Sequence record: OL770074.2
DNA length: 64,000 nucleotides
Source of the DNA: Escherichia phage vB_EcoM-RPN187
Reading direction: 5' to 3' (one strand)
The notes under the pieces: generated by a model
What the model saw: the letters and a program-made list of their open reading frames with translations, nothing else
What the model was told of the DNA's origin: nothing
Database searches by the model: none
Shown: positions 26,845 through 45,111 of the stretch, in pieces
Numbering within the stretch: position 1 is the first letter of the stretch
Layout of the letters: each line of letters opens with the position of its first letter
Program-made: the position numbers and the translations under genes

Positions 26845-27027
26845 TTATAGTGAATTCACGTAGTCAATGAGTTCTTGTTCTTTCCTATCAAATGATTCCA
26901 ACAATGCTTGATATTCTTCATCTGTTAAAGGAGCATATTCATCGTACGCATTGGTGGCTGCTTGCTCATCCAATAGGTCATGGATAAGATCAAACAGTTT
27001 AGCTTTCTCTTCTTTAGTTAATTTCAT
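26845..27027 (-). CDS. hypothetical acidic protein (60 aa)
   Basis: Coding-strand ORF with 4-nt overlap. Confidence 0.3.
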   Translation of the reverse strand: MKLTKEEKAKLFDLIHDLLDEQAATNAYDEYAPLTDEEYQALLESFDRKEQELIDYVNSL

Positions 27028-27230
27028 TTAGGTTCACCTTCTTTAACGAAATCTGGGTAAGGGTAAAATCCTGAGTAAAACCCTTCACCTTTATGATTGC
27101 TACAACCTTTGTTCGAACAGTAACACCAATAATCAAAATCACAAGCCATTTCGTCATTGCATAAAGCAAAAACTACAGGCCATTCGCATTTTTCGCATTT
27201 AGCACCTGTAAGAATTTTTGTTTGACTCAT
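27024..27230 (-). CDS. hypothetical cysteine-rich protein (about 68 aa)
   Basis: Ten Cys in 68 aa (CEKCEW...CNDEMACDFDYWCYCSNKGCSNH). Confidence 0.35.
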   Translation of the reverse strand: MSQTKILTGAKCEKCEWPVVFALCNDEMACDFDYWCYCSNKGCSNHKGEGFYSGFYPYPDFVKEGEPK

Positions 27231-27439
27231 AGCCATGTCACCTTTAAGCAATATTCTTCTACATGTTGTTTACGACCTTTCTTATCAATAAAGGTATATT
27301 CAACGAATGTTCCGATGTAGTCTTTATCTACATCATGTGGACTATTAATTGGACATTTGGTACGACAAATGCGTTCCCATTGACGAATAATTACTGCCTT
27401 ATTCTTTGGGTCATACGGATGTGGATAATGTATATTCAT
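27227..27439 (-). CDS. hypothetical protein (about 70 aa)
   Basis: Coding-strand ORF; likely start MNIHYPHPYD. Confidence 0.35.
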   Translation of the reverse strand: MNIHYPHPYDPKNKAVIIRQWERICRTKCPINSPHDVDKDYIGTFVEYTFIDKKGRKQHVEEYCLKVTWL

Positions 27440-27933
27440 AATAATGGTTCCCAATCAACAATCACAATTTCTAGTTTAGTGGAATACGTATCTAAAATCT
27501 CTTCGATGACATCCCAGTTTCCACCACCGATACCTGCACCAATTCTTGGCATGTAAATTACAGGCTTTGTTATCTTATTCTTTCCGAATTCATTTAATTC
27601 TATTATACAATTCATTAAAGCAAAGTACTCAAAATTAGGTCCAGGCTCAAACTGCGTATAAAGATTAAAGCAATAAGCTTTATGTGTCTTAAAATATTTT
27701 TCATAAACTGAATAAGTCCCGAGTTTAGACTCGTCTCCGAATTCAGTTTGAAGTTTATCGGCTTCTAGAATTTTTGGATAAGCCTTTGCTAATTGTCCTG
27801 CCACACCAGCGCCCATTGTATGAAAACAATTACACCCATGAGCAATATTATTACCTTTAGAAAACAGGGCGACAATATCGCCCTTGATATAGTTTTTAAT
27901 CACTTGCTGCAAGTCCTCTAGTATAAGAGTCAA
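27436..27933 (-). CDS. macrodomain-like protein (165 aa)
   Basis: NIAHGCNCFHTMGAGVAGQL and PRIGAGIGGG resemble the two glycine-rich ADP-ribose-binding loops of macrodomains; size fits a single macro fold. Confidence 0.5.
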   Translation of the reverse strand: MTLILEDLQQVIKNYIKGDIVALFSKGNNIAHGCNCFHTMGAGVAGQLAKAYPKILEADKLQTEFGDESKLGTYSVYEKYFKTHKAYCFNLYTQFEPGPNFEYFALMNCIIELNEFGKNKITKPVIYMPRIGAGIGGGNWDVIEEILDTYSTKLEIVIVDWEPLL

Positions 27934-28243
27934 CTAGACGGTCCACCATAGAATTGCATGCTGCCTTATCTTTAGGTTCCGCCACCGAGCATTCTAATAT
28001 TTGCCATTTTTTATAGTATCTTTTAATTAAGGTGGACGCCTTGAACCTACTAGTCGCCCCATCTTTTTCTCCGTCTTTATACGCATATAACAATTTTTGT
28101 GAAAAATCTACTTTACACTCTTGACTTTTACCACAATAATCAGACGCTGTTCTGTTTGTATACTCCGTTACATCAGTATATGTAGTATTAGCAAGAGCGT
28201 TAAACGAAACCAAGCCAACTATTAAAGCCAACATTTTGGTCAT
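27896..28243 (-). CDS. hypothetical secreted protein (115 aa), vs position
   Basis: Signal peptide MTKMLALIVGLVSFNALA; four Cys. Confidence 0.4.
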   Translation of the reverse strand: MTKMLALIVGLVSFNALANTTYTDVTEYTNRTASDYCGKSQECKVDFSQKLLYAYKDGEKDGATSRFKASTLIKRYYKKWQILECSVAEPKDKAACNSMVDRLVDSYTRGLAASD

Positions 28244-34024: not shown

Positions 34025-34483
34025 TTATAGGAGGGTAGTGAGCACCTTATATAATGATTTGCCCATTACATATTCCCATTGAGAAGGTTTAATTAACGCG
34101 AATGCATCAAATTCAGGAATCTGTCTTCCGTCCGGGAACGTATGATAGGAATTACAAACACTGTTTCTGAATTGCTCGTGCTCTACAGGGATGGTATATA
34201 GGAACAGATGAATATTCTTATTGTCTGAGTAATGATGTTCACCTAGGTCTTTCAGGAAGGCAGGGTCATATTGTGTAAACCCAGTTTCTTCTTCGCATTC
34301 ACGAATAGCGGCTTCGATAGGAGATTCACCGGGCTCGACACGACCTTTAGGAATATCCCACCGATGAGCTAAAGAACCTTTAGGACGAGAACCAGTTACA
34401 CGCCCCATGAATAATTCTTTATCTTCGGTAAGGAAAATAATACCAGCTGATAGTTCTTTCACTTTATTTTTCTTACTCATCAT
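34025..34483 (-). CDS. nudE: Nudix hydrolase NudE
   Basis: Nudix box GRVEPGESPIEAAIRECEEETGF; adjacent to e as in T4. Confidence 0.75.
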   Translation of the reverse strand: MMSKKNKVKELSAGIIFLTEDKELFMGRVTGSRPKGSLAHRWDIPKGRVEPGESPIEAAIRECEEETGFTQYDPAFLKDLGEHHYSDNKNIHLFLYTIPVEHEQFRNSVCNSYHTFPDGRQIPEFDAFALIKPSQWEYVMGKSLYKVLTTLL

Positions 34484-34971
34484 CTCAAATTCCTGCATTC
34501 GGTAATAAAACGTTCAACTTCATTATTCTTGGCCTTTATCTTGTCTTTATGTTCTTGTAAACTACTTTTAATAAGATTAATAATGATGGCGGCGGTACCG
34601 CCGCCAATGATGCCACCAACAACACTTATGATAATAGATGCTAATAAGATAGCAATAATATCAACAAAACCGAAAGAACTCACCTTAGTACTGAAAAACC
34701 ATATAGATGGTACAAATATAATCCATCCTGTTATCCATTGGCACTTATTGAAAAACTTTTCAAGCTCAGCTTGAGTTGTTCGTATTACTTCATCGATAGG
34801 TTGATATCCATTAATGTATCTGTTCACAATAATACCTGCTGGCTGGTCGATTTTAAATTCTTGGCAAATACGTTTCACTAAGTAGGATGGACATCCTGTC
34901 CATCCTACTGAATAGTATGAAATACCTTCGTTGCCATCGTCTATATTAGACCAATATGTTTTGTTAATCAT
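34480..34971 (-). CDS. hypothetical membrane-anchored protein (163 aa)
   Basis: C-terminal TM helix plus Gly-rich helix; ends in ERFITECR motif. Confidence 0.4.
   Translation of the reverse strand: MINKTYWSNIDDGNEGISYYSVGWTGCPSYLVKRICQEFKIDQPAGIIVNRYINGYQPIDEVIRTTQAELEKFFNKCQWITGWIIFVPSIWFFSTKVSSFGFVDIIAILLASIIISVVGGIIGGGTAAIIINLIKSSLQEHKDKIKAKNNEVERFITECRNLR

Positions 34972-44425: not shown

Positions 44426-45111
<686 letters not shown>

Follow-up and report, generated by a model that had tools for sequence, protein, structure and literature searches.

What might a T-even phage gain from a small macrodomain? The question is raised by an open reading frame on the minus strand of Escherichia phage vB_EcoM-RPN187 (OL770074.2), within the stretch of 64,000 nucleotides analyzed here, which we call the window. 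A first-pass annotation, made from the letters alone, had proposed that this frame encodes a macrodomain-like protein with two glycine-rich, ADP-ribose-binding loops, and that such a protein could reverse ADP-ribose marks or degrade ADP-ribose-derived signals. The frame is real, and both motifs, NIAHGCNCFHTMGAGVAGQL and PRIGAGIGGG, are found in it exactly as quoted, in the ORF list and in the raw sequence (Table 1).

The tk.4 gene and its surroundings

The window is DNA of an RB69-like T-even phage (Mosigvirus), and a 3.5-kb stretch around the gene is 98-99% (98.8%) identical to many Mosigvirus genomes, in which the gene is labeled as a macro domain protein. The product of the frame is the ortholog, in Mosigvirus (the RB69 group), of T4 Tk.4, recently renamed AdfM. 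Over the full length, it shares 84% identity with T4 Tk.4 (NP_049723) and 99% with RB69 Tk.4 (NP_861803; 151 of 153 residues). The gene order in Mosigvirus genomes (regB, vs.1, vs, tk.4, small tk.x genes, tk, and rI) is the same in T4 and RB69, whose Tk.4 proteins have the same size, 154 to 155 aa, and whose genes lie at the same place between vs and tk.3/tk.2. T4 tk.4 starts with ATG and overlaps vs by 4 nt, whereas in the window the probable start is GTG and the overlap 8 nt; otherwise, we found no difference of substance. In the window, two small genes, one for a zinc-binding domain protein and one for a DUF7202 protein, separate tk.4 from a tk.2-like ORF. In RB69 (compared locus L085, 9317-9960), tk.2 directly abuts tk.4, so that the genus varies here by a small indel.

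Because the gene is the ortholog of a recently characterized anti-defense gene, it has to be counted as already known: annotation of the macrodomain dates back to the genome papers on T4 and RB69, and its part in countering DarTG2 was reported for T4 in 2025. In GenBank, the T4 and RB69 genes are named "phosphatase; contains A1pp phosphatase motif"; the name in newer records is "macro domain-containing protein", and several others label tk.4 as "hypothetical protein". The A1pp domain in tk.4 orthologs was already pointed out in a comparative paper of 2006 (PMC1524935). Relatives of Tk.4 were detected by tblastn in 2,792 of 50,697 phage records, mostly in large myoviruses of enterobacteria, Vibrio, Acinetobacter, Aeromonas, and Pseudomonas. 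Compared with T4, the window gene has a dN/dS of 0.07 at a dS of 1.25, values that indicate strong purifying selection.

Table 1. Positions of the tk.4 gene, its neighbors, the conserved segments of the protein, and other features of the window.
Feature	Position	Strand	Description
tk.4 / adfM CDS, most likely from GTG	27436..27903	minus	one macrodomain; 155 aa + stop
Longest mechanical ORF	27436..27933	minus	165 codons from TTG
5' end region	27901..27933	minus	TTG 27933..27931; GAGGA 27918..27914; GTG 27903..27901
vs (valyl-tRNA synthetase modifier)	27896..28243	minus	upstream neighbor, synteny anchor; stop TAA 27898..27896; annotation of closest record, T4, RB69
tk.3-like gene (DUF7202)	27227..27439	minus	downstream neighbor, synteny anchor; PF23832, E 1.6e-38; ATG overlaps tk.4 stop
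Zinc-binding domain protein gene	27024..27230	minus	between tk.4 and tk.2-like ORF
Loop 1, residues H22-A35 (HGCNCFHTMGAGVA)	27799..27840	minus	conservation in 118 homologues, hhalign
Strand end N80-L-Y-T-Q84	27652..27666	minus	hhalign; N80, Y82, Q84 invariant (118/118)
Loop 2, diphosphate-binding, residues P119-W130 (PRIGAGIGGGNW)	27514..27549	minus	conservation in 118 homologues, profile alignments
Terminator-like hairpin AGGGCGATATTGTCGCCCT, then GTTTTCT	27866-27884	minus	codons 7-13 of tk.4, ~20 nt past GTG
T4 middle promoter-like motif	27597-27622	minus	MotA box TGCTTTA, 12-nt spacer, TAGAAT; inside tk.4, towards tk.3/tk
Nudix hydrolase gene	34025-34498	minus	beside endolysin gene; equivalent of T4 e.1/NudE
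ORF of 151 aa; H-x-T/S motifs HSTI and HITL	44426-44881	minus	after tail fiber assembly helper gene

The longest mechanical ORF begins at a TTG codon, and we rejected this start (165 aa) in favor of the GTG downstream of it. The gene was taken from the GTG because the T4 ATG falls on this codon when the DNA of the two phages is aligned, the Shine-Dalgarno sequence GAGGA is kept upstream of the start in both phages, Tk.4 is annotated with 155 aa in T4 and 154 aa in RB69, and homologues start with "MI.." at the residue position of the GTG. On these comparisons, the GTG is most likely the true start, giving 155 aa as in T4, and all residues below are numbered on this form of the protein. The start codon lies within the end of vs, and the stop codon TGA shares bases with the start ATG of the following gene (ATGA). 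In the closest record (GenBank OR062945.1, 85217-85597; locus L001, 4437-4817), tk.4 is annotated from an internal ATG as 126 aa, without the N-terminal strand and loop 1, and this truncation is probably owed to the GTG start.

A terminator-like hairpin lies within the first codons of tk.4. T4 has the identical sequence over the 26 nt around the hairpin, although the tk.4 DNA as a whole is only 81% identical. The hairpin could affect translation initiation or could be a by-product of the conserved KGDIVALF peptide.

Fold and active site of Tk.4

The macrodomain fold suggested at first pass was recovered by profile, model, and structure comparison. Pfam Macro (PF01661) matches with 26.0 bits against a gathering cut-off of 22, over profile positions 2-117 of 118. 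The predicted fold is the three-layer alpha/beta/alpha sandwich around a central mixed beta-sheet. From a 52-sequence alignment, AlphaFold2 gave a model with mean pLDDT 95.4 and pTM 0.90, and a Foldseek search of the PDB returned TARG1, Poa1p, BT1257, DarG, and SCO6735, each with a probability of 1.0. The PDB matches by sequence are all ALC1-like (BT1257, 1e-10; yeast Poa1p, 2e-8; SCO6735, 8e-5; TARG1 and DarG, ~1e-3), and with the 52-sequence profile the E values are 3e-17 for TARG1, 1e-16 for BT1257, 6e-14 for SCO6735, and 3e-12 for the DarG of Mycobacterium tuberculosis (Mtb). The nearest neighbors in structure and sequence are thus ALC1-like/TARG1 macrodomains, and none is of the MacroD, PARG, or viral kind. 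With its 155 aa, Tk.4 is a stand-alone member of the ALC1-like/TARG1 class, a single domain whose size is right for one macro fold, as had been supposed.

To follow the loops through the family, we counted conservation in 118 Tk.4 homologues. The glycine loops singled out at first pass are indeed conserved: G23, N25, G33, and A35 of loop 1 and P119, I121, G122, and G124 of loop 2 are invariant, H22 is kept in 116 homologues, W130 in 117, and K60, outside the loops, in 113. In hhalign comparisons, H22 is equivalent to Poa1p H23 and SCO6735 H24, and N25 to DarG N22, SCO6735 N27, and PhiKZ AdfM N23. Loop 2 aligns to PRIGCGL in TARG1 and SCO6735 and to PPLGAGNGG in DarG.

The active site is where Tk.4 and DarG part. 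In profile-profile alignments, the strand end NLYTQ84 of Tk.4 aligns to YLITK84 of TARG1, NFPTK80 of DarG, and NMIGQ85 of SCO6735, with the same motif as the last in BT1257. By these alignments, Tk.4 has a glutamine, Q84, where DarG and TARG1 carry their catalytic lysine, and this glutamine is invariant across the family (118/118). In an ungapped HMMER alignment to BT1257, Q84 had come to stand opposite an aspartate, a pairing superseded by the gapped profile alignment. Human TARG1/OARD1 (PDB 4J5R; hhalign 98.4%) shares the ALC1-like fold class, but the second member of its K84/D125 dyad is also missing, D125 aligning to G126 of Tk.4 (hhalign).

SCO6735 of Streptomyces coelicolor (PDB 5E3B) and BT1257 of Bacteroides (2FG1/2AFC) are, by contrast, Gln-type ALC1-like proteins as is Tk.4 (Q84=Q85, N25=N27, H22=H24). 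The equivalents of SCO6735 H24, N27, Q85, G126, and G128 are all kept in Tk.4. SCO6735 differs from Tk.4 in a "mobile loop" that is 5-6 residues longer and in the DNA-contact lysines K34 and K89, and Tk.4 is without all of these: a gap of 5-6 residues stands opposite the segments HGMKTGSKG (SCO6735) and HGIYKDSKGL (BT1257) in hhalign, and K34, a DNA contact in loop 1, aligns to A32. Since the SCO6735 residues are kept and the mobile loop with K89 as well as K34 are absent, we place Tk.4 in the ALC1-like class as a compact protein of Gln type. Its active site, as read from aligned residues, is of SCO6735 type and not of DarG type, and this Gln-type site is what goes beyond the Tk.4 literature consulted.

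We accordingly rejected the idea that Tk.4 is a homolog of DarG sharing its catalytic lysine: Q84 stands on K80/K84 (hhalign), and the score with the DarG equivalog is far below the cut-off. PADLOC DarG matches Tk.4 at an E value of 4e-8, and NCBIfam DarG (NF048014) reaches 29.8 bits against a cut-off of 250, in the macrodomain part only (positions 4-146 of 338). DarG (PDB 5M31, 5M3I, 7OMU) has K80 in place of Q84, a C-terminal DarT-binding domain, and an adjacent darT, whereas Tk.4 has neither the domain nor a darT beside it, its neighbors being vs and the DUF7202 gene. Tk.4 is best described as a protein that would work like DarG but is not a DarG.

The same alignments bear on a metabolite role like that of yeast Poa1p, in which Tk.4 would act as an ADP-ribose 1''-phosphate phosphatase or an O-acetyl-ADP-ribose deacetylase. 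Poa1p (6LFQ; hhalign 97.9%) belongs to the same fold class, and the legacy name "phosphatase" originates in this idea, but such names for Tk.4 come from the domain name and not from assays. Of the residues probed in the Poa1p structures (H23, S30, and F152), the first aligns to the conserved H22, the second to T29 (Thr in 76 of 118 homologues), and the third to G126, which is Ala or Gly in all Tk.4 homologues. Poa1p also has Ser at the Gln position, while BT1257 and SCO6735, the closer relatives in sequence and fold, share the Gln. Given, in addition, that DarTG2 sensitivity is the sole phenotype reported for T4 tk.4 in the preprint discussed below, we consider a metabolite role very unlikely.

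DarTG2 and the proposed reaction

Resistance to DarTG2 has been found in all Tevenvirinae examined, RB69 included, and is independent of AdfA and AdfN (PMC11257639); a further anti-DarTG2 factor was therefore predicted for these phages. In November 2025, the HIDEN-SEQ preprint reported a T4 transposon library grown on a DarTG2-expressing host, in which tk.4 was the single significant T4 gene (depleted); a clean T4 tk.4 knockout was DarTG2-sensitive, the gene was renamed adfM (anti-DarT factor Macrodomain), and enzymatic removal of ADP-ribose from DNA by Tk.4 "seems likely" to its authors (bioRxiv 10.1101/2025.11.20.689424). The earlier suggestion that the protein might reverse DarT-type marks fits these genetics of the T4 ortholog. 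The requirement for tk.4 against DarTG2, shown genetically for T4, would extend to the window phage by orthology. A six-frame search of the DarTG2-sensitive phage T5 with the Tk.4-family profile found no member: the best match reached 8 bits, and the window, as positive control, 221 bits. T5.105 ("Sir2") was considered as a hidden macrodomain and set aside, since no profile matched it and its DIDG motif looks, by eye, like that of HAD proteins.

Work on SCO6735 gives a model for the chemistry. Both in vitro and in cells, this enzyme takes off the ADP-ribose that DarT attaches to thymidine; its Q85A and Q85E mutants have no activity and N27S nearly none, and the proposed chemistry uses a positioned water and no lysine nucleophile (PMC9411070). 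DarG K80A is inactive (PMC5179494). TARG1, too, is reported to remove DarT marks (PMC8501950).

We think it quite probable that the window gene, as the Mosigvirus Tk.4/AdfM ortholog, encodes an ALC1-like macrodomain that erases DarT2 marks from thymidine with an SCO6735-type site. During infection, Tk.4 would bind the ADP-ribose put by host DarT2 on thymidines of single-stranded phage DNA and hydrolyze the base-ribose bond, releasing free ADP-ribose and leaving replicable DNA, and with its DNA so restored the phage would escape the DarTG2 abortive defense. The invariant Q84, held by the invariant N25, may position the distal ribose for water-mediated cleavage, with no catalytic lysine taking part. 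Catalysis on ADP-ribosyl-thymidine DNA by the window protein, and by Tk.4 generally, is what we infer from these comparisons. Because Tk.4 has neither the DarG/TARG1 lysine nor the TARG1 aspartate, and neither the mobile loop nor the K34/K89 contacts, the SCO6735 mechanism as a whole is likewise one that we infer for it. The Gln active site implies that Tk.4 chemistry should be modeled on SCO6735 and not on DarG, and that inhibitor and mutant designs based on DarG K80 would not transfer.

Tk.4 might instead protect mainly without catalysis, by binding or inhibiting DarT2 or by shielding ADP-ribosylated DNA as an antitoxin would. Protection through binding is conceivable because SCO6735 Q85A, although catalytically dead, inhibits DarT in vitro, and does so more strongly than DarG K80A or TARG1 K84A (PMC9411070). 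The DarG macrodomain alone, however, does not inhibit DarT once it carries K80A, and it is full-length DarG that blocks DarT through protein-protein contact as well (PMC5179494); Tk.4, with its 155 aa and its score far below the DarG cut-off, has no extra DarT-binding domain. The absence of a catalytic lysine would suit a binder, but the family-invariant N25, Q84, G122, and G124 are residues needed for catalysis in SCO6735 and DarG, and stand-alone chromosomal relatives exist in bacteria, with no conserved partner in the neighbor clustering across 80 loci. On balance, we judge protection without catalysis unlikely and favor the removal of the mark.

A further possibility is that Tk.4 erases ADP-ribose from protein or RNA, whether set by Alt, ModA, and ModB or by defense transferases, or destroys Thoeris-type signals. 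T-even phages themselves encode ADP-ribosyltransferases, and protein-linked ADP-ribose is also a substrate of SCO6735 and TARG1. Alt, ModA, and ModB modify arginine, however, and cleavage of the arginine linkage is not known for TARG1-class macrodomains. In HIDEN-SEQ, tk.4 was found specifically with DarTG2. CmdTAC is reported to defend robustly against the T-even family, so Tk.4 presumably does not neutralize the CmdTAC mRNA transferase. The link that the first-pass annotation had drawn to the phage's own Alt/ModA/ModB marks or to Thoeris signals found no support, and of all the explanations weighed here we give this one the least credence. The erasure of DarT2 marks from DNA remains the preferred reading.

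Namesakes, bacterial relatives, and other features of the window

Other counter-defenses against DarT toxins are known from T-even phages. AdfN (T4 gp30.3, a NADAR protein) and AdfA (gp61.2) have folds unrelated to that of Tk.4; they act against DarTG1, which makes guanine marks, and not against DarTG2, and both genes lie outside the window. AdfN is likewise an orphan antitoxin-like hydrolase (PMC11257639). T-even phages would stack dedicated erasers against DNA ADP-ribosylating toxins, AdfN for DarTG1 and Tk.4/AdfM for DarTG2.

The name AdfM was also given, independently, to PhiKZ gp104 (Cell Reports, 2026), which removes DarT2 DNA marks in vitro and shows reduced activity as N23A (PMC13309987). 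Like Tk.4, gp104 is a phage-encoded stand-alone macrodomain that counters DarTG2. Close kinship of the two was rejected: gp104 matches window Tk.4 only over 23 residues by BLASTP (E 7e-4) and at 95.9% by hhalign, and instead matches Mtb DarG at an E value of 9e-25 and retains the P-T-K lysine. T4-type and PhiKZ AdfM share fold class and target but belong to different subfamilies, and they appear to represent separate recruitments. The name AdfM has been coined for two only remotely related proteins, the Gln-type T4 Tk.4 and the DarG-like, Lys-type gp104. In practical terms, the analysis yields a probable corrected GTG start, a warning that two subfamilies share the name AdfM, and an active site with Gln instead of Lys.

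Relatives of Tk.4 at 35-45% identity occur at 251 bacterial loci in a scan of one genome per species, among them loci of the Roseobacter group, Verrucomicrobia, Planctomycetes, Desulfobacterales, and Hymenobacter. Clustering of the neighbors within 3 kb across 80 of these loci gave no partner conserved across the set, only lineage-specific ones, although a rare DarT neighbor could have escaped this clustering. In 11 of the 80, a gene of the endonuclease/exonuclease/phosphatase (EEP) family (~406 aa; PF03372, E 1.8e-10) lies 16 bp downstream on the same strand (e.g., L020, 6003-7223), and the macrodomain and EEP-family pair may form a two-gene module for DNA repair or ADP-ribose processing. SCO6735 is a chromosomal, DNA-damage-regulated gene, whereas Tk.4 is a phage gene; the bacterial relatives resemble stand-alone housekeeping enzymes of SCO6735 type more than toxin-antitoxin modules.

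Beside the endolysin gene, the window encodes a Nudix hydrolase, and the RB69 record lists FAD, Ap(n)A, ADP-ribose, and NADH as its substrates. That this enzyme disposes of the ADP-ribose freed by Tk.4 is speculation. A wider account would make T-even AdfM a Gln-type eraser akin to the housekeeping SCO6735 and BT1257, recruited independently of PhiKZ AdfM, with broader substrates (protein and RNA ADP-ribose), protecting beyond DarTG2 and with NudE.1 clearing the ADP-ribose; taken as a whole, we find this account rather doubtful.

A sigma-70 promoter scan of the tk.4 region showed no enrichment (18 found against 20 expected). MotA-type motifs number 12 in the window against 3.2 expected by chance, and one of them lies inside tk.4, pointing towards tk.3/tk. 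The consensus applied to it is that of T4 middle promoters, and the match is predicted from sequence. Further along, after a tail fiber assembly helper gene, the window holds a 151-aa ORF with two H-x-T/S motifs that is annotated as "cyclic phosphodiesterase" in the closest record. Its location presumably corresponds to that of T4 57B, which is the anti-CBASS nuclease Acb1.
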